Positions 651 to 17,364 of a stretch of DNA of 32,000 bases are shown one piece after another (within the stretch, counting starts at the first letter, position 1; each line of letters begins with the position of its first letter). Position numbers and translations under genes: made by a program. Source of the stretch: Candidatus Saccharimonadota bacterium (GTDB lineage: Bacteria; Patescibacteriota; Saccharimonadia; Saccharimonadales; UBA4665); contig CP025011.1 of the NCBI GenBank assembly GCA_002952755.1, positions 600,001-632,000 of the forward strand. The letters run 5' to 3'. The notes below the pieces were generated by a model. The model saw nothing but the letters and a program-made list of their open reading frames with translations. It was not told where the DNA came from and ran no database searches.

Positions 651-785
651 GTGGGTGTGTCTGTATTTCGTGTGCCTAAAACCTTTATCAACTCTTTCCT
701 GCGTGCTGGAAAGCGCCTGTCGGCGCTATTTTTATGCTTTTTCTTTTTGCTAACTTCTACAATACCCACGCTCTCTGCGTATGCA
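651..785 (+). other. Sec-type signal peptide of the Rhs protein (aa 1-45)
   Basis: MGVSVFRVPKTFINSFLRAGKRLSALFLCFFFLLTSTIPTLSAYA|AE has a basic n-region, a hydrophobic core and an A-x-A-type cleavage site (AYA). Confidence 0.75.
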
Positions 786-3700
786 GCTGAACGGCTAGAC
801 TCACCTCCCAAAGCTCCTATAGATCAAAGCATAACTGCTGCTCATTCTAAAACCCCACCTACAGGCCTCAACACGCCAATGAAAACAGACTATGCACCTG
901 CTTTGTCGACACTTCAATCTAAGAACAAGTTAGCGGCTGACTATTCTCCTGCAGTTAAGGGAGCGTCATCAGTTTTAGGCATGACGAATAATACAACTCC
1001 GTCAAATAGCAGCGCAGCTGGCCTGCAATCTCCAGTCGTGCCTAAAACAGGTAAGACCGAGGAAATCATTAGCAAGCGAACCGCTAACTCGACTACGACG
1101 AAAAATGAAGACGGTAGCTATACCGTCCGAAAGTACGAAACCTCCAAATTCTACAAGCGGAATAACGACTGGAAAACGATTGACACTAAACTTGTAGAAG
1201 ACACCGACTCTGGTGATGCTGGCAATGTTCTTGGTGATATTTTTGGTAAGGCAGAATCATTATTTAAATCGACAAACACTTACACGGTGAAACAAAACGA
1301 CTGGCTGGCACGCTTTGCTCCGAGCGGCTCCAAGCAAGCCATGGTCCGTATAAAGAAGGGCAATCAGGAGGTTGGCTTCTCGCCGCAAAATGCTAAGGAT
1401 GGCGTTACGCCTATTGTTACAACTGACGATAACGGGGAGCAGACAGTCCATTACTATGATCTCTGGCCGGGCGTAAATCTTGAGTACATAGTCAAAGCGG
1501 ATGAACTCAAGGAAAACATAGTACTCAAAGACAAATTGGCCACAAGTGACTTTGCCTTTAATGTTACCGGCGCGACACTCAAGAAACCGGCAGCGAAGAC
1601 TGAAGTTGCCGGACCTATATACGATATCGATGGTGCATTGGGGAATGAATTTGCAGTAGCGCCCTTGGCTGTCGTGCTAAACGCATTTGGTGTCGAAGAT
1701 GCCGGTCCAGCCTTGCAGCACTCCTACGCGGATGGCGTGTTCAAGATTTCACTAACCCATGACTATGTATCTAATCTTCCGGGTAAGGCATTCCCTTTGG
1801 CAATTGACCCAACATATGTGCACCAAAATCACTTTGGGACACGTGCTGGCGGTAACTACGTAAGTTTTAAAAGTGACGGATACGTGTGCGACGCAACAAT
1901 TTGTAACCCATATTTCGGATCGGTGCTTGACTCTAATTACATATGGCGCAGCTGGCGCAGCATGCTTTTTTCTGACTATAGTGAAGTTAAAGGGCATCAG
2001 CTCAATAATGTCACGTTCCACTTCACACAGCGCCTTGGTCTGTCCGTATCTGGACCTACCGATCCGCATGCGTTATATACCTGGCATGGTAGCTGTTTTA
2101 ACTATAATTGCCGGGGAGTCCAAGGTGGGTCGGGCGTTGTTGGTACATCGGGGGACATCGATGTTACGGCAATCTACCAAAACCGCATTGCCGCCGGTGA
2201 CTATGGAGCATGGCTTCAGTTAAGTGGTGAAGAAGGTACTTATACGAGCTATAAAAATACTGATCCGGATAATTCGTGGGTCCAATTTACATTTACGGAC
2301 GTGCTGCCAGCTCCTAATATAGTCACCCCGGCTAACGGGCAGGTGTATATTGACCCCCAAGTTTCATTTAGTGCCACGCCAGGCTTGACTAATCCGTCGA
2401 GTAACGCAGCCTTGCAGTATAATTTTTGCGTCAGTACGGGCCCGGCTTGTGCGGGAGCGGTTATGGTATCCAGTCCGCAGCCCAGTTCTCAGTGGACGAT
2501 CCCCGATGGTCTGTTGCAGGACGGCACTACTTATTATGTGCAGGCACAAACGTACGATACGAACTTACAGATATACAGTCCTTATGGCGTTGCGGCATCT
2601 TTCAAAATAGATAGTCGCACTGGCAAAGATAGCACACAGGCCTATGACACACTCGGCCCGGTATCGGTGGATTTAGCAACTGGCAATGTGAATACTAGTG
2701 AGGCAAGTCATACGAGCGCGGCCCTCGGTGGAACCATGGGCATCAGCCTTGATTACAATTCGCCAGTTAAGTCACGTCGTGGCTTAGTCGGGAAATACTG
2801 GAATGTAGTCGCAAACTATGCCGGTGGTCTACCGGCAGGTTCGCCGGATTTGACGAGAGTGGACCAAACGGTTGATTTTGATTGGCAGACAGGTTCGCCA
2901 TTAGCAGGCACTATAAACAACGATTGGATTTATGCAGCCTGGGACGGATTCTTTGTGCCTCAGACCACGGGAACTTACTATTTCGGCGGCAATAATGACG
3001 ACATGCTGAGCATAAAGGTAAACGGCCAACAGCTTTATTCAAATGGGGGCTGCTACAGTGGCGTCTGTTATGGCTCATCGATTAATCTTGCGGCTGGCCA
3101 GGCGGTGCCAATTCATATGGAGTACGAAGAAGTAACGGGTCCTGCCTATGCCCATCTGCACGTAAAGACTCCTGATAGTGTTGATCATGTTATGCCAGTT
3201 GATTGGCTACAGACGGGCGTTAGGCCGGTAACACAGAATACGGGTTTGACTGGTAAGTACTATAGAGACCCTAATGGCACTCACGATTTTACTGACTCAA
3301 ACAATACACTTCTCATGCAGCGTACCGATCCTGTTGTCAGCTTTAACTGGCAGAGCGGGCCAGCTGTGCCAGGCGGTCCAAGTGATAAGTTCATGGCGAG
3401 ATGGACGGGATACGTGACTGCACCCACTAGTGGAAGTTATGACTTTGGGACGGTTAGCGACGACGGAAGTCGCATCACGATAGGCACTAATAATACTCAA
3501 ATCGTAAACAAATGGAATGATGATGGCGGAACACCAGCGTGGGGTACGTATTCATTAGTAGGCGGTGTGCCGACCCCGATTACCGTTGACTATTATGAAA
3601 ATGGCGGCGGGGCGATGATGTACCTCAAGATGCGCGGCAATGGCATGGCCGAACAGATTGTGCCTACCAGTTGGTTATCGACGGGAGCCTCCGTGCTGCC

Positions 3701-6700
3701 GAGTGGCTGGGCGATGGGAATCGACGCTGACGGCAATCTGTCGTACGACCACCTCAAAGCAATGCAGAACAGCGTAGTACTCACAGATTCAACCGGCAGT
3801 ACTCACGAATACGTTTGGGATAACGATAAGCAGAACTACAAGCCGCCGGTTAACGAAGATGGCAATTTAGTGCGAAATGCTGACGGTACTTACACACTCC
3901 AGGACACCGATGGCCGTACGTATGTATTCAAGGCCGATGGTACGATTGATTCAGTTACTTCAGCTACTGACGACTTGAAGCCGACAGCGCTGAAGTATCA
4001 ATATGGCGGCACACCGTCGCACCTAATTGAAATAACGGACGGCGTAGATACCTCTCGCTGGGCTAGGGCCTACTACTACGGTGATACCGCCAATTGCCCC
4101 GCATCGGTAATTGGCTTTGACACTCCAGCAGCTGCGCTAAATAAACTCTGTGCCGTAACGACCAATGATGGCCGTACTACGTCGATCTACTACAAAGACG
4201 GCAATCTGGTGCGTATCCAAAAGCCGGGTAACGAAATTACCGATTACCAATATGATGCGCCTGGAAGAATCGTATCAATGCGAGATTCAGTTGCAAACGA
4301 CGCCATTGCGGCTGGAGTACGCACCGATGATGCTACCGTCCTGACGGCACTTTACTATGACGATCTAGGGCGGGTTATCAGTGTGACTGAGCCTGCTGCT
4401 ACGGCGGGTGCTGTCCGTTTGCAGCATAGCCTCGAATATCTGCCAGGCAACGGTACCTACTACGGAGCAACTCAGCAACGTACGGTAGGGGCAACAGAAC
4501 CAAACGGCTATGCGCACCGAGTCGAGTATGATAGCCTATACCGCACGATCGCCGATAAAGACATCGCTGGTCTCACCGATACTACTGCATGGGATCCTGT
4601 AAAAGATCTCATGCTCAGCACAACTGATGAGACTGGCCTTAAATCAACGACTATTTACGACGACGACGATCGTGCAATATCCCACTATGGTCCGGCACCA
4701 GCGGCCTGGTACGGAACAGACCGTAAACCGTCAAGCTCATATGTTAACCAAGTCCCGCATACCGACACGAACTATGATGAAAATATCCCAGGCATGGCAC
4801 TTGCATACTACGGATATGCCCCCACGAGCAAAGTATTAACTGGTGCTCCTAAGCTTCATACTACGAATATTCCTGGCGCAGCCACCGGCACATTTAGTAA
4901 CGATTTTGGTACAACTTCTCCGATAACTGGGGTAACGGACAATTGGGGCTTCCGGGCTACTGCTAAATTACGCCTGCCTCTGACTGGCAACTATACCTAC
5001 AGAATTGTTTCCGACGACGGCGTGCGACTCTATATTGACGATACGCTACAACTTGATGACTGGAACGCTGGCCCTACTCGTAGCCACCCCGCCGTTGGTT
5101 ACGTAAATACTGCCAATACTCTGCATCGTTTTAAGATTGAGTATTTCCACACCAACGACGCTACCAGTACAAATAACGCGAACATTACCCTGTATATCAC
5201 CCCTCCCGGTGGCGCAGAAACAGCCGTTAATCTTACCCAGTACTTCACACCTGATTACGATTTGGTAACTTCTACCAAGGAGTATGATTCGGCCATCGGG
5301 GATGCTACAGCCACAACCAACTACGGCAGCAGTCCGGAACTTGGCCTAGCGCAAAGCAAAACAGCCGATTCAGCAGGTCTCAACCTGACCTCCTCAAGTA
5401 CGTACGAAACTCAAGGTGCCACTGGCAGCTTACTTCGTCAGACTAGTTCTACTCTTCCTGGCGGTACTACCTCTACCTACAGCTACTATGGCGCAACCGA
5501 AACACGGCAGAACCCCTGCAACACTTCACAAACCTTCAGACAGGCGGGTATGCTAAAACTAAAGACGGAGGCGGACCCAGACGGCGCTGGTTTACAGGCG
5601 GCACGTACCACCGAAACCGTGTATGATGATGCCGGAAGAGTGATAGCAACTCGCTTAAACAGCGACCCTTGGACTTGTACGACCTACGATGCACGTGGCC
5701 GTGTAACAGAAATCGACATTCCAGCCTTTAATGGTGCAGCTGCAAGGACAGTACGAAACGATTATGCTGTCGGCGGAAATCCATTTGAAGCTACAACTTG
5801 GGATGGCAGCGGCTGGATAGTAACTTGGATAGATCTGTTAGGGCGTACTACCAAATACCGCGACGTCTTTGACGACGAGACCATAACCACCTATGATAGC
5901 CTTGGTCGTATGACCCAACAACAAAGCCCTGCGGGGACCCAAACGTATATCTACGACAACTATAATCGGCTCACACAGCAACAGCTCGATGGCACCACAT
6001 TGGCCAATGTCTACTATGATGCATATGGCAGGATAGATCACGTCAGCTATCCAAATGCCGGCAATCTTGGCCTCGCCAGTATAAGCAGGGATGCTAATGG
6101 CCGGACAAGCGGGCTGACATATAACACCAGTACCAATACGCCTGGTTCTAATCTAGTGCCAAATCCATCACTTGAGACAGTAACAGCCGGCCAGCCAGAT
6201 AACTGGAACCAGGATCACTGGGGTACCAATACGACGAACTTTGCCTATTCCACTGACGCTCACACCGGTACTCATAGCGGCAGGGTAGATATGACCAGTT
6301 ACACCGATGGGGACGCCAAATGGGACTTTACCCCGGTTAACATCAGCGGTGGTACCAATTACACCTTTAGTGATTACTATAAATCAAATGTTGCCACCAA
6401 TGTCTTCGTGCAATATACCTACGCCGACAATAGTACTTCATATCAATGGCTCGGTAATCCGGCGGCCTCTAGCGGTAGTTGGGCGCAGGCAACCTACAAT
6501 TTTACTGCACCGGCTACAGCCATTAAAGCATCGATATTCCATGCGATAAACGCGGTCGGCTGGATGCAGTTAGATGATATGGACATGCATTTAACGTACG
6601 GGTCGGCAGCGGTTTCTGACGCTGTCACCCGCAGCCAGTCCGGACAAATCCTGAACGACATCGTAACTGCTGGCTCCAACAACCTCTGGAGCACCTACCA

Positions 6701-8111
6701 GTACGACAAAGCCGACAGATTAACTAGCGCGGCGATCGGGCCGCACACATACAGTTATGGCTTCGGGACAGAAAATGCAGCTTGTGGCAGCGGAGCCGGA
6801 ACAAATGTGAACGCTGGTAAAAACGGCAACCGTACCACGCAGACCATAGATGGCACAACTACTTGGTATTGCTACGACAATGCCGACCGGCTAATTAGCA
6901 GCAGTGATCCCACAGCCGATTACAGTGAATACGACCCTCATGGCAACATGACTTACCTTGGTACCGGCACCATACCACTGCGTCTGTGTTATGACTCCAG
7001 TGACCGTAATTCTTGTCTGGTTAACTACAATAGTTCGGGAAATGGCTCGGCCACGTACTATAGTCGTGATGTCCAGGGCCGTATAACCTACCGTGAAAAT
7101 GACACCATAACGGCCCGCAATTGGAACGCGAATTCTCAGATCTGGTACGATTACACGGGTGCGGGCGACACCCCGGATTACGCCCGTGACCCCAATTGGA
7201 ACATTGTAGAGAAATACATCCAACTTCCTGGTGGTGCAGAGCTGACAATCCGTCCACTGCAACCCACCGCTGCAGCCAAAGCCGTCTACTCACTCCCCAA
7301 CATCCACGGGGATACCCTGCTCACTACTGACGGCACCGGCACCAATACCTCCACCGGCAATGGCCCAGCCAACAGTTTTACCTACGATCCCTTCGGTAAT
7401 ATATTACCTGGCAGTACTCAGCCCAGTAACATAGCTGGTACTGGTTCCTTTGGCTGGCTTGGTCAACATGAGAAGTTCACTGAAAGTACTCTAGCTCTCG
7501 CACCAATTCAAATGGGCTCAAGAGTATATCTGCCGACGCTTGGACGATTCACGAGTGTAGACCCGGTGCAAGGCGGCACCGAGAACAATTACGTCTACGT
7601 CCTCGACCCAATTAACGAGTTCGATCTTGATGGCAACTTTGGCTGGGGCAACCTCGCGAAGAGCGTGACAAGGGTCGCGACGATTGGCTCGTTTGTACCG
7701 GGGCCGATAGGTTTAGCTTGCACTGGTGTAGCTGTGGCGGGCAATCTGGCACAAGGACACTACAAGGAAGCCGGACTTGCTGCTGTCGGGGGCGCCTTCG
7801 GAGTGGCAAGACTTGCAACGAAGGCGACGGCGATTGCAAGAGTTGCAGCGGCAACTTCTAAAGATGGCAATGCAGGCTTCAATATGCTCAAGGCGCATAC
7901 TATTACTGCTCGACTTGCTGGAAAGATATATACTTCGGGATCTAATGGGCAGAAAGGCTTTCGCATCGCTACTAAGGCCAGTGGAGCAAAGATCGCAAAT
8001 TTCGAACAGTTTAGGCGTAGCATCACGTATGCTAGCAGAAATAGTACTTTAAGGCGATTCCCGAATAGAAGTCAAAATCTACACCTTAGAATAGGAGGAT
8101 GGTTATGGTAA
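651..8111 (+). CDS. Giant secreted Rhs/YD-repeat polymorphic toxin (WapA-style, Sec signal) with PA14 and CBM-like modules and a variable C-terminal toxin tip
   Basis: A 7461-nt ORF of 2486 aa with a GTG start after an SD. It has an N-terminal signal peptide and an S/T/P-rich linker. There are many YD repeats: YQYDAPGRIVSM, YYDDLGRVISV, VEYDSLYRTI, VYDDAGRVIAT, TYDARGRVTEI, TYDSLGRMTQQ, IYDNYNRLTQQ, YYDAYGRIDHV, YQYDKADRLTSA, CYDNADRLISS, EYDPHGNMTYL. The RHS core reads FTYDPFGN...GWLGQHEKF...GSRVYLPTLGRFTSVDPVQGGTENNYVYVLDPINEFDLDGN and is followed by a non-repeat tail. Confidence 0.95.
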   Translation: MGVSVFRVPKTFINSFLRAGKRLSALFLCFFFLLTSTIPTLSAYAAERLDSPPKAPIDQSITAAHSKTPPTGLNTPMKTDYAPALSTLQSKNKLAADYSPAVKGASSVLGMTNNTTPSNSSAAGLQSPVVPKTGKTEEIISKRTANSTTTKNEDGSYTVRKYETSKFYKRNNDWKTIDTKLVEDTDSGDAGNVLGDIFGKAESLFKSTNTYTVKQNDWLARFAPSGSKQAMVRIKKGNQEVGFSPQNAKDGVTPIVTTDDNGEQTVHYYDLWPGVNLEYIVKADELKENIVLKDKLATSDFAFNVTGATLKKPAAKTEVAGPIYDIDGALGNEFAVAPLAVVLNAFGVEDAGPALQHSYADGVFKISLTHDYVSNLPGKAFPLAIDPTYVHQNHFGTRAGGNYVSFKSDGYVCDATICNPYFGSVLDSNYIWRSWRSMLFSDYSEVKGHQLNNVTFHFTQRLGLSVSGPTDPHALYTWHGSCFNYNCRGVQGGSGVVGTSGDIDVTAIYQNRIAAGDYGAWLQLSGEEGTYTSYKNTDPDNSWVQFTFTDVLPAPNIVTPANGQVYIDPQVSFSATPGLTNPSSNAALQYNFCVSTGPACAGAVMVSSPQPSSQWTIPDGLLQDGTTYYVQAQTYDTNLQIYSPYGVAASFKIDSRTGKDSTQAYDTLGPVSVDLATGNVNTSEASHTSAALGGTMGISLDYNSPVKSRRGLVGKYWNVVANYAGGLPAGSPDLTRVDQTVDFDWQTGSPLAGTINNDWIYAAWDGFFVPQTTGTYYFGGNNDDMLSIKVNGQQLYSNGGCYSGVCYGSSINLAAGQAVPIHMEYEEVTGPAYAHLHVKTPDSVDHVMPVDWLQTGVRPVTQNTGLTGKYYRDPNGTHDFTDSNNTLLMQRTDPVVSFNWQSGPAVPGGPSDKFMARWTGYVTAPTSGSYDFGTVSDDGSRITIGTNNTQIVNKWNDDGGTPAWGTYSLVGGVPTPITVDYYENGGGAMMYLKMRGNGMAEQIVPTSWLSTGASVLPSGWAMGIDADGNLSYDHLKAMQNSVVLTDSTGSTHEYVWDNDKQNYKPPVNEDGNLVRNADGTYTLQDTDGRTYVFKADGTIDSVTSATDDLKPTALKYQYGGTPSHLIEITDGVDTSRWARAYYYGDTANCPASVIGFDTPAAALNKLCAVTTNDGRTTSIYYKDGNLVRIQKPGNEITDYQYDAPGRIVSMRDSVANDAIAAGVRTDDATVLTALYYDDLGRVISVTEPAATAGAVRLQHSLEYLPGNGTYYGATQQRTVGATEPNGYAHRVEYDSLYRTIADKDIAGLTDTTAWDPVKDLMLSTTDETGLKSTTIYDDDDRAISHYGPAPAAWYGTDRKPSSSYVNQVPHTDTNYDENIPGMALAYYGYAPTSKVLTGAPKLHTTNIPGAATGTFSNDFGTTSPITGVTDNWGFRATAKLRLPLTGNYTYRIVSDDGVRLYIDDTLQLDDWNAGPTRSHPAVGYVNTANTLHRFKIEYFHTNDATSTNNANITLYITPPGGAETAVNLTQYFTPDYDLVTSTKEYDSAIGDATATTNYGSSPELGLAQSKTADSAGLNLTSSSTYETQGATGSLLRQTSSTLPGGTTSTYSYYGATETRQNPCNTSQTFRQAGMLKLKTEADPDGAGLQAARTTETVYDDAGRVIATRLNSDPWTCTTYDARGRVTEIDIPAFNGAAARTVRNDYAVGGNPFEATTWDGSGWIVTWIDLLGRTTKYRDVFDDETITTYDSLGRMTQQQSPAGTQTYIYDNYNRLTQQQLDGTTLANVYYDAYGRIDHVSYPNAGNLGLASISRDANGRTSGLTYNTSTNTPGSNLVPNPSLETVTAGQPDNWNQDHWGTNTTNFAYSTDAHTGTHSGRVDMTSYTDGDAKWDFTPVNISGGTNYTFSDYYKSNVATNVFVQYTYADNSTSYQWLGNPAASSGSWAQATYNFTAPATAIKASIFHAINAVGWMQLDDMDMHLTYGSAAVSDAVTRSQSGQILNDIVTAGSNNLWSTYQYDKADRLTSAAIGPHTYSYGFGTENAACGSGAGTNVNAGKNGNRTTQTIDGTTTWYCYDNADRLISSSDPTADYSEYDPHGNMTYLGTGTIPLRLCYDSSDRNSCLVNYNSSGNGSATYYSRDVQGRITYRENDTITARNWNANSQIWYDYTGAGDTPDYARDPNWNIVEKYIQLPGGAELTIRPLQPTAAAKAVYSLPNIHGDTLLTTDGTGTNTSTGNGPANSFTYDPFGNILPGSTQPSNIAGTGSFGWLGQHEKFTESTLALAPIQMGSRVYLPTLGRFTSVDPVQGGTENNYVYVLDPINEFDLDGNFGWGNLAKSVTRVATIGSFVPGPIGLACTGVAVAGNLAQGHYKEAGLAAVGGAFGVARLATKATAIARVAAATSKDGNAGFNMLKAHTITARLAGKIYTSGSNGQKGFRIATKASGAKIANFEQFRRSITYASRNSTLRRFPNRSQNLHLRIGGWLW
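2781..3216 (+). other. PA14 domain 1
   Basis: GLVGKYWNV...TRVDQTVDFDWQTGSP...AAWDGFFVPQTTGTYYFGGNNDDMLSIKVNGQ...HMEYEE matches the PA14 pattern (GLxGxYW/Y, xVDFxW, rWxG, tGxYxF, DDxxxlxi). Confidence 0.8.
3243..3686 (+). other. PA14 domain 2
   Basis: GLTGKYYRDPNG...RTDPVVSFNWQSG...DKFMARWTGYVTAPTSGSYDFGTVSDDGSRITIG...VDYYENGGGAMMYL is a canonical PA14 motif series. Confidence 0.85.
4791..5262 (+). other. PA14 domain 3, inserted between blocks of YD repeats
   Basis: GMALAYYGY...DNWGFRATAKLRLPLTGNYTYRIVSDDGVRLYIDD...HRFKIEYFH. YD repeats lie on both sides (ending about 4700 and restarting about 5600). Confidence 0.75.
6150..6590 (+). other. CBM4/9-like carbohydrate-binding (jelly-roll) module inserted in the YD-repeat region
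   Basis: NLVPNPSLETVTAGQPDNWNQDHWGTNTTNFAYSTDAHTGTHSGRVDMTSYTDGDAKWDF...GGTNYTFSDYYKS...WAQATYNFTAPATA...GWMQLDDMDM. The NPSFE/xxxPxxW...GxxSxxV...Y.fS.w.k pattern is typical of CBM_4_9-type modules. This is assigned by motif only. Confidence 0.55.
7377..7637 (+). other. RHS repeat-associated core domain ending in a variant cleavage motif
   Basis: FTYDPFGNILPG...GWLGQHEKFTES...IQMGSRVYLPTLGRFTSVDPVQGGTENNYVYVLDPINEFDLDGN. The canonical cores end in DPxGL, whereas here the ending is D-L-D-G-N. Confidence 0.85.
7638..8108 (+). other. Variable C-terminal toxin tip (157 aa), family not recognised
   Basis: The position immediately after the RHS core is where polymorphic toxins carry their effector. 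The sequence is FGWGNLAKSVTRVATIGSFVPGPIGLACTGVAVAGNLAQGHYKEAGLAAVGGAFGVARLATKATAIARVAAATSKDGNAGFNMLKAHTITARLAGKIYTSGSNGQKGFRIATKASGAKIANFEQFRRSITYASRNSTLRRFPNRSQNLHLRIGGWLW. I could not find any known catalytic motif in it. Confidence 0.7.
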
Positions 8112-8473
8112 GTGTAAAACTGAATAATGTATTCATCGAGCACGGGGAAAAAGAACTCCTTTCAAAATCTTTGGGTCAAAAAAATACGCGTTGGTATGCT
8201 GCCGTTGCCTTGGATTTAACTGATCTATCTTCAAATCAGAAAATCGCTGAATGGTTCTACCTAATGTTATGTTCGCCTGAGTACGCTAAACAACCTTTTA
8301 AAAGGGGCCCGCATATCGAAACCGACCAACCCTATGTCGTGGTCCAAGACCAATTAGATATGGACAAGGCATTAAAGATCGCAGAAGACAAAGTGAAAAT
8401 TATTCAGGCCGATAACTGGGACGAGTTCTATACTAAAATGAGCGAAGAATTCCTATATGAAGATAAGGCCTAA
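8105..8473 (+). CDS. Putative cognate immunity protein (acidic, Imm8-like motif pattern)
   Basis: AGGAGG at 8093-8098 lies 6 nt before ATG 8105. The ATG at 8099 given in the ORF track has zero spacer. The start overlaps the Rhs stop (ATGGTAA, TAA at 8109-8111). The protein has 21 D/E against 15 K/R. The motifs WFYLMLCSPEY, PYVVVQD and NWDEFYTKMSEEFLYED resemble my recollection of Imm8 family proteins (FxVxVCTPxW ... hLIV ... TWxEVxxKLxxxxxWEFEDY). Confidence 0.7.
   Translation: MVSVKLNNVFIEHGEKELLSKSLGQKNTRWYAAVALDLTDLSSNQKIAEWFYLMLCSPEYAKQPFKRGPHIETDQPYVVVQDQLDMDKALKIAEDKVKIIQADNWDEFYTKMSEEFLYEDKA
8192..8360 (+). repeat. Direct repeat copy 1 (169 bp, inside the immunity gene)
   Basis: By base-by-base comparison it is identical to 9211-9379 (offset 1019 bp). 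Confidence 0.95.
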
Positions 8474-8481
8474 ACTGAAAG

Positions 8482-8907
8482 ATGGTAAGTAATTCAGTTG
8501 ACGAAGTCATTCATAAAATTAAGCACGTATACGATGCTGATATATCAATCCAAAATGAAGGAAATCAGTTCATCGACAAAAGGTTAACTATTAAAGACCT
8601 ACATGATAATGGAGTTACGATAGAGCTTAGTTTTAACAGTGAGGGTAAGGCTTCTATGCTTCAGCTACTGGGCTTTAAAGACGCAAATTTCAATATAGCG
8701 GAAGAATATACAAGCAATACAATATTGGAAGCAGTTTTTTTGTTAATGCAGGGTGATTTTAGTATAAAAAGAAGCGTATTTGGCCGCCCGTCACTGCTCG
8801 TTAAACAATTTGGAATAAAATTTAAAGCGACAGGCGGCACTAGAGTAGACGTTGGACCATACGCAAACTCTGCCAGCAAGGAAGAATCTAAATACGCTGA
8901 CCTTTAG
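8482..8907 (+). CDS. Hypothetical protein (141 aa) in the toxin/immunity cassette; possible second immunity or accessory protein
   Basis: The ORF starts 8 nt after the immunity-gene stop on the same strand. It is AT-rich (about 35% GC in 8521-8580 by hand count). I see no recognisable motifs, signal peptide or TM segment. Confidence 0.6.
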   Translation: MVSNSVDEVIHKIKHVYDADISIQNEGNQFIDKRLTIKDLHDNGVTIELSFNSEGKASMLQLLGFKDANFNIAEEYTSNTILEAVFLLMQGDFSIKRSVFGRPSLLVKQFGIKFKATGGTRVDVGPYANSASKEESKYADL

Positions 8908-8937: not shown

Positions 8938-9405
8938 ATGCGCATAGAAGACTTCGAAGCAGCTATAGCTGCTACTGGACTAGTCGGCGCAGGTGCAGTT
9001 ACTAAACTTGCCGCGAAAGCTGTAGATCATGCTGCCTTAGCTGGGAAGAGTGCTAATATAATTGCACGTGCAGCGGAGGGCGCTGGTGCCAAATTGGCAA
9101 GAGCTCAATCAAACTTGCCACTAGTGGGGAGTGCGAGCAGAGTTTTTAGGAGATATATCAGCTACAATGAAAAAATATGTAGTTCAGCATACCAAATAAG
9201 TCTAGGAGGATGGTATGCTGCCGTTGCCTTGGATTTAACTGATCTATCTTCAAATCAGAAAATCGCTGAATGGTTCTACCTAATGTTATGTTCGCCTGAG
9301 TACGCTAAACAACCTTTTAAAAGGGGCCCGCATATCGAAACCGACCAACCCTATGTCGTGGTCCAAGACCAATTAGATAAACTACAACCTGACTACTTGT
9401 TCTAA
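8938..9405 (+). CDS. Orphan divergent toxin-tip fragment fused in frame to a truncated copy of the immunity gene (probable recombination remnant)
   Basis: It has its own ATG with GGGGAG 12 nt upstream. Residues 1-91 (..ATGLVGAGAVTKLAAKAV...RVFRRYISYNEK...ISLGGW) align loosely with the last ~110 aa of the Rhs tip (..AGLAAVGGAFGVARLATKAT...EQFRRSITYASR...LRIGGW). Residues 92-147 are identical to immunity residues W-Y-A-A-V...VVQDQLD. The last 8 aa (KLQPDYLF) are unrelated. Confidence 0.6.
   Translation: MRIEDFEAAIAATGLVGAGAVTKLAAKAVDHAALAGKSANIIARAAEGAGAKLARAQSNLPLVGSASRVFRRYISYNEKICSSAYQISLGGWYAAVALDLTDLSSNQKIAEWFYLMLCSPEYAKQPFKRGPHIETDQPYVVVQDQLDKLQPDYLF
9211..9379 (+). repeat. Direct repeat copy 2 (169 bp, inside the orphan fusion ORF)
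   Basis: It is identical to 8192-8360. The 12 nt preceding it (taggaggatggt, 9203-9214, overlapping the repeat start) also occur at 8092-8103. Confidence 0.95.
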
Positions 9406-15309: not shown

Positions 15310-17364
15310 ATGAAAAGAATCCGTTATTGGCTCCTCGCAATAGCTATGGCCGTACTGCCGTTTATATCAGTAGGACGAGCGTTAGCAGTAAGTTGTGGGG
15401 CTGGGAAAAGCATGAATGTTGTCGCACACGAAGACGACGATCTGCTCTTTCTAAATCCAGCTATTTTGCACGACATCCAAAATAACAGGTGCGTGCAAAC
15501 AGTATTTATGACAGCCGGTGATGCCGGTAGCGGGTCTAGTTATTGGGGCGGACGAGAGTCGGGAATGAAGGCAGCGTATGCGCAGATGGCCGGCGTTAGC
15601 AATGTATGGGATGATACGACACCAACTATTTTGGGCCACACCGCGCACTTGTCTACCTTGCATAATGCGCCGCAGGTATCGTTGCTGTTTCTGCGACTAC
15701 CAGACGGCGGTGAACATGATGGTATTGAGGGCTTTGCTAGTGATAACTATGAAACGATGCGTAAGCTTTGGCAGGGTACCATTGGTACGATACATGCTGT
15801 AGACGGGTCGGCTAGTTACGCACGGGAAGAACTTACCGATACATTAGCCACGCAGATGGCGCTCTATGAGCCAGGTACTATTCGTTCATTGGACTATACA
15901 GGTACCTATAGCGACTTGAGCGGAGGTGATGACGACCATTGGGATCACCACTCGAGCGCCTATTTTACACAGGTCGCCCAAGCTAAACATACCGTAGTCT
16001 CACACATGCTAACGGGGTATATGGGGTATCCAGTTGATAGCCAGAGTACGAACATTTCAGGCACAGATCTGACGAACAAGCAGAACGCGTTTTACACATA
16101 CAATGCCTATGATGGCGGTGACTGTACGAGCAGCAGCAATTGCACCGCCGTGCTGGCAGATTATTTACAAAAACAATATGCAGTGGGAACACAGTCGGGC
16201 AGTAATCGTTGGTCATATACCACTATGGAGGGTGACCCCGGTTCTTTAAGCGGCCGGAATGCTGATGTTGGCAATCAGCCGTCAACGGTTGTTTTTGGCA
16301 CCAATGTATATAGTTTCTATTACGACGCTACAGCAGGCGATTTACGCTACGCCAAATCATCTACCAGTACTACAACGCCTAGCTGGACATTCGGCATACT
16401 CGACGGTGCGGGTGGCTCAAGCGGCCGCTTGAATACCGACCTTGGGTTAACCCCTAATTCGATCGTGTTCAATGGCGTGTTGCATGTGTTCTACTACGAT
16501 CCGACTAGTGGTAACTTGCGCCATGGTTGGACATCTGACGGGGTTAATTGGTCATTTAACAACCATGATGGGGATACGGGCTCTATCGGCGGTCTGAACG
16601 CCAATCTGGGTAAAACTCCAATTGCGACAGTATACGGATCGTCTCTCCAGCTATTTTACTACGATGCGAGCAATGGTAATCTACGCCACTCATGGTCATC
16701 TGACGGTAGTGCATGGTCATTTGAGACCCTGGATGGGGACAGTGGTGCAGTGTCTGGGTATAACGCCAACGTTGGTGGGGACCCAAGCGTTACTGTTTAC
16801 GGATCGACCTTGCAGCTATTCTATTACGATTTGACACAGGGGGACCTGCGCCATGCATGGTCGGATGCGAGCGGTTGGCACTTCGAGACGCTCGATGGAA
16901 GTGGCGGTTCGAGTGGCAGGGTATCGGCGGATGTAGGCATTACTTCTACAGTAGCTGTGCAAGGTTCATATCTGAATGTTTTTTACTATGATTCATCAAA
17001 TGGAAACCTAAGGCATATGTGGACTAGCCCAACTGCCGGTTGGCAGGCCGAGAATCTTATCGGTGATGCTTCCTCAGTAGTTCGCTACAATGGTTCTATC
17101 GGCGCTATGCCGGTGGCTATAGCCAACGGCAGCGCCATGGAATTGTTCACCTATGACGCTTCGCATCAGGCTCTTATTCACCTGTGGGATGCGGGCAGCG
17201 GGTGGCAGGAAGAGTCAGTAGATGGTTTTGGCGCCGATAGCGCAGGCACGGTCGGTAGCAACGTAGGGCTCGATCCTAGTTTAGTTATTTACGGCTCGGC
17301 CTTACATGTCATTTACTACGATGCAGGTCAGGGTAATCTGCGTTATGCGCAACTCAGTATCTAG
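15310..17364 (+). CDS. Secreted PIG-L/LmbE-family deacetylase fused to a seven-blade lectin-like beta-propeller
   Basis: AGGGGG lies 4 nt before the ATG. The signal peptide is MKRIRYWLLAIAMAVLPFISVGRALA|V. PIG-L motifs are VVAHEDDDLLF (AHxDD) and DDDHWDHH (HxDH). The C-terminal half consists of seven ~54-aa tandem repeats. Confidence 0.85.
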   Translation: MKRIRYWLLAIAMAVLPFISVGRALAVSCGAGKSMNVVAHEDDDLLFLNPAILHDIQNNRCVQTVFMTAGDAGSGSSYWGGRESGMKAAYAQMAGVSNVWDDTTPTILGHTAHLSTLHNAPQVSLLFLRLPDGGEHDGIEGFASDNYETMRKLWQGTIGTIHAVDGSASYAREELTDTLATQMALYEPGTIRSLDYTGTYSDLSGGDDDHWDHHSSAYFTQVAQAKHTVVSHMLTGYMGYPVDSQSTNISGTDLTNKQNAFYTYNAYDGGDCTSSSNCTAVLADYLQKQYAVGTQSGSNRWSYTTMEGDPGSLSGRNADVGNQPSTVVFGTNVYSFYYDATAGDLRYAKSSTSTTTPSWTFGILDGAGGSSGRLNTDLGLTPNSIVFNGVLHVFYYDPTSGNLRHGWTSDGVNWSFNNHDGDTGSIGGLNANLGKTPIATVYGSSLQLFYYDASNGNLRHSWSSDGSAWSFETLDGDSGAVSGYNANVGGDPSVTVYGSTLQLFYYDLTQGDLRHAWSDASGWHFETLDGSGGSSGRVSADVGITSTVAVQGSYLNVFYYDSSNGNLRHMWTSPTAGWQAENLIGDASSVVRYNGSIGAMPVAIANGSAMELFTYDASHQALIHLWDAGSGWQEESVDGFGADSAGTVGSNVGLDPSLVIYGSALHVIYYDAGQGNLRYAQLSI
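16210..17361 (+). repeat. Seven tandem ~54-aa protein repeats (beta-propeller blades)
   Basis: Each unit reads W-x-F/A-E-x-L-D-G-x-x-G-x-x-G-x-x-x-A-x-V-G-x-x-P-S-x-x-V-Y-G-x-x-L-x-h-F-Y-Y-D-x-x-x-G-N/D-L-R-H/Y-x-W. Examples are WSFETLDGDSGAVSGYNANVGGDPSVTVYGSTLQLFYYDLTQGDLRHAWSDASG and WHFETLDGSGGSSGRVSADVGITSTVAVQGSYLNVFYYDSSNGNLRHMWTSPTAG. Confidence 0.85.

Follow-up and report, generated by a model that had tools for sequence, protein, structure and literature searches.

A gamma-peptide-like pre-toxin module and a rare cationic toxin domain at the tip of an Rhs protein from a Candidatus Saccharimonadota bacterium

The window considered here is a stretch of 32,000 nucleotides from a Candidatus Saccharimonadota bacterium (GenBank assembly GCA_002952755.1, contig CP025011.1, positions 600,001 to 632,000 of the forward strand), and our analysis concerns the C-terminal tip of an Rhs/YD-repeat polymorphic toxin encoded in it. 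Toxins of this kind are known, and here too the repeats and the core lie immediately before a variable tip. The 2486-residue protein comprises, in this order, a Sec-type signal peptide (MGVSVF...LSAYA|AE, by reading of the sequence), three PA14 stretches, RHS repeats, the core and the tip. The original prediction, made from the sequence of the window, had taken the tip for a single small basic helical effector of an undescribed toxin family. We find that it is a composite of a pre-toxin module, a basic linker helix and a toxin domain, followed by an immunity gene. The features that carry the argument are, in positions of the window:

651 to 8111, plus strand: gene for the Rhs/YD-shell polymorphic toxin, 2486 amino acids (Pfam PA14, E = 3e-44; RHS_repeat, E = 2.7e-7).
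7383 to 7637, plus strand: RHS repeat-associated core, ending in DPINEFDLDGN, with the predicted aspartyl autocleavage region (TIGR03696, E = 9.6e-12).
7638 to 7796, plus strand: conserved pre-toxin module, tip residues 1-53, resembling the nodavirus gamma peptide (from profile comparisons and genome loci).
7797 to 7862, plus strand: basic linker helix rich in Ala, Lys and Arg, tip residues 54-75 (helix predicted at low confidence), with the first copy of a short motif, ARLATK, at 7806-7823.
7863 to 8108, plus strand: rare cationic toxin domain, tip residues 76-157 (from a tail-family search and alignment), with the second and third copies of the motif at 7908-7925 and 7959-7976.
8105 to 8473, plus strand: predicted cognate immunity gene, Imm8-like, 122 amino acids from the ATG at 8105 (alternative ATG at 8099; PF15586, E = 2.1e-5).

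The NCBIfam model TIGR03696 covers residues 2245-2328 of the protein with model positions 1-75 of 76. Since this match ends at residue 2328, the core ends at DPINEFDLDGN (nucleotide 7637) and the tip starts at 7638, which agrees with the tip of 157 amino acids at 7638-8108 that had been proposed originally. Other Rhs proteins and TcC proteins carry their tip within the shell, where a built-in aspartyl autoprotease cuts it off. By analogy with these proteins, aspartyl autoproteolysis would free the tip after ...DLDGN.

A recount of the composition of the tip gave the same 15 Lys/Arg against 2 Asp/Glu in the last 86 residues as the original prediction. The tail, by which we mean the toxin domain, has an isoelectric point (pI) of 12.0, and the downstream protein one of 4.9. 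Residues 14-60 are rich in Gly, Ala and Val as described (26 of 47), but with 2 Lys/Arg, 1 Glu and 1 His they are nearly rather than fully uncharged. The glycines of this segment at positions 25, 30, 35 and 40 are spaced by 5 and not by 4, so that the proposed likeness to a glycine zipper (GxxxGxxxG, with Gly at i, i+4 and i+8) does not hold. The motif [AF]R[LI]A[TG]K does occur three times, at tip positions 57, 91 and 108, and three copies were found in none of 200,000 composition-preserving shuffles, for a pattern that was picked post hoc. In homologues, the first copy falls in the basic helix that follows the module, the second in the helix ahead of the beta core and the third in an invariant R...K motif, which reads YRGPAIK in relatives. 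Since the copies lie in three different elements and the third one changes in this way, they do not form a conserved repeat unit. Scans of the tip against Pfam and NCBIfam matched no toxin family.

The module starts with a Trp-containing amphipathic helix (residues 1-19), which is followed by an invariant PGPIG hinge (residues 21-25, nucleotides 7698-7712), a Gly/Ala hydrophobic stretch (residues 24-40) and then HYKEAGLAAVGGA. Among 5.8 billion proteins we identified 22 relatives of the tip, all with the module directly after the RHS core and with diverging C-termini; the consensus of the module in these relatives is 'W.W...K..T.VA.VASFIPGPIGMVASGVAVAGNLAQGNWKGAA.AAVG'. In a scan that covered one genome per species, the module turned up at 47 loci, of which 35 belong to Actinomycetota (19 to Streptomyces), 6 to Saccharibacteria, 3 to Bacteroidota and 1 to Lentisphaerae, with 2 unassigned. 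At 43 of the 47 loci the module lies directly after the RHS core and starts a few residues past ...DPxN.FDLDG, the same motif as in the window. The other four are the three Bacteroidota loci, which are not RHS-linked, and a contig of 623 nucleotides (L007) beginning inside the module. At the protein level, the identity of the modules across phyla is 28-66%.

The payload after the module varies and includes small basic 'K.GWS...FR.G' tails, a GIY-YIG nuclease (E = 5.4e-6) and architectures with PT-HINT, and the downstream gene changes along with the tail type. PT-HINT was detected behind the basic linker in the two loci tested (E = 3.8e-13 and 1.6e-17), with a further domain after it, which in one of them (L013) is a Tox-URI2-type nuclease. 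Standing before unrelated nuclease payloads, the module is an element of delivery or processing and not the toxic part. The Gly/Ala segment, which had been read as part of one helical effector, is a portable and widely conserved pre-toxin module. Its likeness to the pre-toxin family PT-TG (PF14449), suggested by the original prediction, did not bear out: none of 17 module sequences matched that family at E<=10 and none of 10 full tips at E<=0.1, and the conserved Gly/Asp/Arg loop that defines PT-TG is absent from the module. It shares with PT-TG and PT-HINT the slot between the trafficking or repeat region and the toxin, and co-occurs with PT-HINT in actinobacterial relatives.

The commonest payload after the module in Saccharibacteria and some Actinomycetota is an unclassified basic tail of ~70 amino acids (L002-L012, P0004-P0021) with the consensus Q[AS][KR]...IG..S.LFG...G.LN...K.GWS...FR.G, for which Pfam and NCBIfam scans gave no family. 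A longer order, consisting of core, gamma-like module, very basic linker, Hint-type domain and a further C-terminal region, is seen in the actinobacterial loci L013, L024, L025, L045, L046, L010 and L007, where the module has the variant ASYIPGPIG..A..ISAVSYAATGNWRKAAEM. Pfam was run on L013 and L010, with PT-HINT found in both and Tox-URI2 in L013, while the Hint domain of the remaining longer loci, and in L025 a GIY-YIG-like region, are assignments by visual inspection. In these Hint-bearing relatives the toxin would, judging from the order of domains, undergo two successive self-processing steps. In Bacteroides, Rikenellaceae and Alistipes metagenome-assembled genomes (L036 5719-6528, L038 5680-6456 and L039 5707-6480), a PGPIG-centred module lies mid-way in non-RHS proteins of ~260 amino acids with a helical N-terminal part, and a Pfam scan of the L036 and L038 proteins gave no family.

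When compared alone, the module sequence of the window has weak similarity to the membrane-lytic gamma peptide of insect nodaviruses (alphanodaviruses; Pfam Peptidase_A6 gamma region, E = 0.07; gamma chain of black beetle virus (BBV), E = 0.41), a likeness that the original prediction did not mention. A profile of 17 module sequences gave six matches below E = 10 among PDB sequences, and all six are alphanodavirus capsid or gamma chains, from four viruses (E = 2.9e-4 to 0.017). With a profile of 24 sequences, to which more diverse actinobacterial variants had been added, the gamma peptide of Flock House virus (FHV) was matched at E = 8.8e-8 (35.1 bits), followed by BBV (1.7e-6), residues 367-404 of FHV capsid protein alpha (3.8e-6), Nodamura virus (NoV, 5e-4) and Pariacoto virus (PaV, 9.5e-4); the next PDB match, an unrelated one, was at E = 1.1. 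The alignment to FHV is gapless and places module positions 3-40 on gamma residues 4-41 of 44 (38 residues), the coverage rising from 30 to 38 of the 44 residues between the two profiles. In the reverse comparison, all 17 module sequences were matched by the gamma region of Pfam Peptidase_A6 (best E = 8.9e-7), as were the actinobacterial module variants. None of ~98,700 composition shuffles of FHV gamma scored above 16 bits, and among 100,000 sequences in which IPGPIG was kept in place and only the flanks were shuffled, the highest score was 34.4 bits (mean 11.8, standard deviation 4.0), below the 35.1 bits of the match. Since the shuffle controls miss this value, composition does not account for the gamma score, and the flanks add to it beyond the PGPIG motif. 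At the level of these profile comparisons, the similarity of the module to gamma peptides is specific. The Peptidase_A6 match is limited to profile positions ~316-349 of 353, and the window reaches 12.6-15.3 bits against a cut-off of 27 that applies to the whole protein. The window protein is not a capsid protein, as it misses the cut-off of the whole Peptidase_A6 family (PF01829) and has no jelly-roll capsid domain.

In FHV, the autocleavage site Asn363/Ala364 marks the start of gamma, Asp75 makes the cut within the capsid, and the peptide consists of an N-terminal amphipathic lytic helix and a hydrophobic part after it (PMC8046363). The match starts at the same distance from the autocleavage site in both, the Rhs site being a predicted one. 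The hydrophobic moment of the first helix is 0.33-0.65 in the modules and 0.41 in FHV, and amphipathicity and hydrophobicity of the module are comparable to those of FHV gamma, but modest. The module shares with the gamma peptides of FHV, BBV, PaV and NoV a Trp near the new N-terminus, the amphipathic helix, the sequence [IV]PGP[IV]G and a Gly/Ala/Ser hydrophobic stretch. The position immediately after a cleavage site, Asp-catalysed in FHV, and the storage inside a protein shell are likewise common to both, as described for FHV (PMC8046363) and as expected here from established knowledge of Rhs proteins. In contrast, gamma is part of a viral capsid and the module part of a bacterial toxin, and the C-terminal FEGFGF of gamma is not in the bacterial module, which runs on into linker and payload. 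A scan of viral contigs gave no copy of the module, and nothing that we found in the literature connects gamma peptides or Peptidase_A6 with Rhs, or Saccharibacteria with Rhs polymorphic toxins. The module may even be a true homologue of the alphanodavirus gamma peptide that carries protein cargo across the bilayer without other proteins, a possibility that we take seriously while leaning against it.

The toxin domain has the invariant residues T88 and A92, followed by NGQKGFR109 (7944-7964), K113, N121-F122-E123 (7998-8006), PNR144 (8061-8069), H149-L150 (8082-8087) and a C-terminal GGWLW. A full HMMER search of 1.84 billion representative sequences with the tail profile gave 7 clusters at E<=0.001; an orphan open reading frame (ORF) of the window (P0027, see below) sat in the query alignment and matches by construction, whereas the other matches rest on shared invariant motifs. 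One further member came from metagenome contigs (L051, the sole locus in the metagenome scan). The family conserves T..A in a helix, [ND]G-x-[KR]-x-h-R, (G)P..K, N-F-E, (Y/F)PN(R/K), (N)G-H-L and a C-terminal W. The T, the A, R109, K113, N121-F122-E123 and H149-L150 are invariant, while the basic residues around them vary. The tail family had no match in Pfam and NCBIfam scans, and against PDB sequences it matched only designed helical repeat proteins (E>=0.11). Kinship to the 'K.GWS...FR.G' tails was rejected (hhalign probability 1%). In the AlphaFold model, which is of low confidence with a predicted local distance difference test score (pLDDT) of 55, a helix is followed by beta strands bearing R109, NFE and HL. 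The tail is thus a very rare sequence family, of which we found no description, with R, K, N-F-E and H as candidate catalytic residues; the original statement that the tip has no catalytic signature has to be revised in the light of this alignment.

In two relatives, P0028 (L050 2121-5801) and P0031, the tail family stands behind a different Gly/Ala-rich hydrophobic segment without PGPIG, and P0028 keeps 'SYAATN', recalling the actinobacterial module variant. It seems that these RHS tips are generally built with a hydrophobic leader ahead of the payload.

The start codon of the immunity gene overlaps the stop codon of the toxin gene (ATGGTAA), and a GGAGGA Shine-Dalgarno sequence lies at 8094-8099. 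The encoded protein is acidic and soluble and has no hydrophobic segment, and the pairing of the basic tip with an acidic immunity gene, expected from the start, is supported by its pI of 4.9 and its likeness to Imm8. In a precomputed annotation of the protein collection it is listed with PF15586, and its relative P0034 (49% identical) is above the Imm8 cut-off at 35.4 bits. Three other members of the tail family are followed by immunity genes akin to that of the window. The L051 protein is 35% identical, that of L048 aligns by hhalign with E = 6.9e-6 over 114 columns, and the link of L050 is weak (Pfam Imm8 E = 0.015, hhalign E = 0.001). A tblastn search of plasmids with an Imm8 relative gave none. 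By these sequence relationships, the tail is associated with Imm8-like genes, and the protein encoded at 8105-8473 would neutralise the toxin.

Imm8 is an alpha+beta protein with 'WEa' at its C-terminus (Zhang et al. 2012, PMC3482391). This arrangement of Trp, acidic and aromatic residue is present in the window protein as NWDEFY, and W-D-[ED]-F-Y is invariant in four relatives. Imm8 is also the immunity protein most often paired with Ntox7, which is predicted to be an RNase of the BECR fold and has the motif 'DGx+xhR, N' (Zhang et al. 2012, PMC3482391), and an Imm8 neighbour has been used by others to infer RNase activity of an otherwise unannotated Rhs tip. In agreement with the published Ntox7/Imm8 pairs, the window has a small C-terminal toxin domain on an RHS protein and an Imm8-like immunity protein with a C-terminal W-[DE]-aromatic motif. 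The [ND]G-x-[KR]-x-h-R of the tail with the conserved N behind it (NGQKGFR109 ... N121 in the window) can be read as the Ntox7 motif, which is short and was compared here in its published form. However, the window has N in place of D, and the invariant K, E and H of the tail family are not in the published motif. Of the 8 tail-family members, 5 fit when N is accepted besides D as the first residue, and only P0031 has the D itself. Tox-EHHH, the other reported partner of Imm8 (HNH/EndoVII motifs [ED]H, H, H), was rejected, as the tail has a single invariant His and no Pfam Tox-HNH-EHHH match. Given the Imm8-like partner and the apparent fit to the Ntox7 motif, the toxin may be a divergent member of a named but poorly documented family rather than of a wholly new kind. 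The proposal of an undescribed toxin family therefore stands in so far as no curated family was matched and the tail family is rare, but is qualified by the possible membership in Ntox7.

We propose, with slightly more belief than doubt, that a gamma-like module for membrane entry delivers a cationic and probably RNase toxin domain, with self-protection by the Imm8-like protein. The tip would be the warhead of a Sec-exported, PA14-decorated Rhs toxin, enclosed in the YD shell, from which the autoprotease would free it by cutting after ...DLDGN as a fragment of 157 amino acids. The module would then bind to and insert into the cytoplasmic membrane of the target and start the translocation of what follows, a membrane activity predicted from analogy with the viral peptide. 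Due to the cationic charge of linker and toxin domain, the membrane potential may help to pull the payload in, as proposed for ABP toxins. In the cytoplasm, the domain of ~80 amino acids would most likely cleave RNA, as a small RNase of the BECR/Ntox7 type that works without metal, a chemistry suggested by the short motif and the immunity partner. The producer would be protected by the translationally coupled, acidic and soluble Imm8-like protein.

Several observations weigh against this proposal. The most hydrophobic 19-residue stretch of the module has a Kyte-Doolittle mean of 1.57, which is marginal for a transmembrane helix, and the hydrophobic moment of the first helix of the window is not significantly above that of shuffles (p = 0.07). 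The likeness to gamma covers 38 residues of restricted composition and could have arisen by convergence. The C-terminal half of FHV gamma also serves RNA packaging, and the shared features might reflect storage in a shell and not membrane attack. For the tail, both AlphaFold models are poor (pLDDT 55 and 46) and Foldseek found nothing in the PDB (best E = 0.65), so that the BECR fold (an N-terminal helix plus a 4-stranded meander) is unproven; the Pfam and NCBIfam scans and the Foldseek search, of the kind suggested with the original prediction, gave no significant match to a characterised toxin domain. The window immunity protein scores 25.1 bits against Pfam Imm8 (PF15586), just under the cut-off of 27 (E = 2.1e-5), and the putative link to Ntox7 is drawn from a short motif and the immunity family.

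The best surviving alternative, which we nevertheless consider unlikely, is that the module has a role in structure or processing, for instance as a plug or a helix packed into the Rhs shell, or is a conserved region of homology for the recombination of orphan cassettes, and that its likeness to gamma is due to convergence or chance. The marginal hydrophobicity and the shortness of the gamma match fit this view, as does the fact that gamma peptides are also stored in a shell, where shared features could reflect packing. Exchange by recombination would fit the orphan remnant downstream of the toxin (from 8938), which begins inside EAAIAATGLVGAG, the last conserved segment of the module. However, the match is gamma-specific and strengthens with diverse sequences, both in E-value (from 2.9e-4 to 8.8e-8) and in length (from 30 to 38 of 44 residues), and the flanks contribute to it beyond PGPIG. 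The protein identity of 28-66% across phyla points to selection at the level of the peptide rather than of the DNA alone, and the presence of the module in non-RHS proteins of Bacteroidota also speaks against this alternative.

Immunity to pore formers is usually conferred by a membrane protein, while the immunity protein found here is soluble, acidic and Imm8-like, without a hydrophobic segment. This already disfavours a second alternative, in which the whole tip would be a membrane-depolarising pore former (cf. Tse5 and some C-terminal toxin regions of CdiA), with the Gly/Ala helices as the pore and the basic tail as an anchor to anionic lipids. Such a toxin would account for the Gly/Ala-rich hydrophobic stretches next to a very basic tail, for the resemblance of the module to a membrane-lytic viral peptide and for an AlphaFold tail without a confident globular fold, and a pore-forming Rhs toxin has been reported (PMC10684867). 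Against it, the module precedes bona fide nuclease domains and PT-HINT elsewhere, and the payload is therefore a part separate from it; members of the tail family also occur behind a different hydrophobic segment without PGPIG (P0028, P0031); and the invariant polar R, K, N, E and H of the tail are typical of an active site. We regard pore formation by the whole tip as quite improbable. More doubtful still is a non-enzymatic cationic tail that acts by binding, to nucleic acid or ribosomes or in the manner of a cationic antimicrobial peptide: its small size, a pI of 12, the low-confidence structure predictions and the lack of a matching catalytic family would suit this, but the catalytic-type R, K, N-F-E and H are strictly invariant while nearby basic residues vary, and the dedicated soluble immunity protein comes from a family reported with RNase toxins.

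The proposed entry of a cationic enzyme behind an amphipathic helix has a parallel in the ABP toxins (AbpT/AbpP/AbpI). In these toxins of Gram-positive bacteria, an amphipathic helix is released by proteolysis together with the highly cationic RNase or DNase domain to which it is attached, and entry into Gram-positive cells depends on the membrane potential and was proposed to be receptor-independent (PMC13460014). Sec export, the combination of amphipathic helix and extremely cationic enzymatic toxin, and a cytoplasmic immunity protein are common to both systems, the latter features being predicted for the window. The window differs in that no neighbour resembles the partner serine protease in the Pfam scan (a BetaH domain was not specifically searched for), that cleavage would be by the Rhs autoprotease, that the helix module is unrelated in sequence, and that the carrier is a YD shell of 2300 amino acids. 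In pore-forming Rhs toxins of the Tse5 type, the Rhs shell also carries a hydrophobic C-terminal fragment, which is membrane-active in Tse5-type toxins and predicted to be so here. The portable hydrophobic module ahead of soluble enzymatic payloads and the soluble immunity protein set the window apart from them, in a comparison of architecture.

Downstream of the immunity gene lie two further features:

8482 to 8907, plus strand: unclassified acidic ORF, 141 amino acids, pI 5.6, G+C 37.3%, between the immunity gene and the orphan remnant.
8938 to 9405, plus strand: orphan remnant, in which a tip fragment rich in Ala and Lys is joined in the same reading frame with an internal piece of the immunity gene.

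The ORF at 8482-8907 had no family in Pfam or NCBIfam, and that it is a second immunity-type gene is a guess. The 5' part of the orphan remnant starts within the last conserved segment of the module and ends in ...ISLGGW. Its immunity part, truncated at both ends, comprises 169 nucleotides that are 100% identical to the immunity gene (8192-8360 = 9211-9379), and the two parts meet at a TGG (Trp) codon that they share, suggestive of a recent deletion or recombination event. The N-terminal part of the orphan (8938-9210) was also considered as a paralogue of the tail and rejected, with an hhalign probability of 0.2% against an orphan-free profile and a BLASTP E-value of 0.009; a stronger match is circular, the orphan being in that alignment. 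The G+C content is 39.7% in the immunity gene and 37.3% in the ORF at 8482-8907, compared to 50.1% in the RHS gene and 48.3% in the whole window, and the low value of 8099-8907 fits a horizontally acquired cassette. Farther downstream, at 15310-17364, the window encodes a protein of 684 amino acids with an N-terminal signal-like segment and about six tandem units of ~45 amino acids (…LQLFYYD..GNLRH.W….GW.FE.LDG…), recognised by eye in the translation.

Two features of this locus were not found described, namely a gamma-like pre-toxin module shared across monoderm phyla and a very rare cationic toxin domain, probably an Ntox7-like RNase. How Sec-secreted Rhs/WapA-type and other polymorphic toxins cross the Gram-positive cytoplasmic membrane is an open question, for which the module offers a concrete and testable candidate: it is short and conserved, stands before several payloads at the predicted autocleavage site and resembles a viral lytic peptide. 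With the tail comes a very rare toxin family that has clear candidate catalytic residues and a matching immunity family, and the module could also serve as a compact tag for protein delivery. If the module is a true homologue of the gamma peptide and carries cargo across the bilayer, this would explain how the nuclease and RNase payloads of Sec-secreted Rhs toxins cross the Gram-positive cytoplasmic membrane without a receptor-translocon. Monoderm bacteria (Actinomycetota, Saccharibacteria) and a family of non-enveloped animal viruses would then share a device that autocleaves within a shell and releases a lytic peptide, an unexpected sequence link between bacterial toxins and the capsid maturation of non-enveloped viruses.

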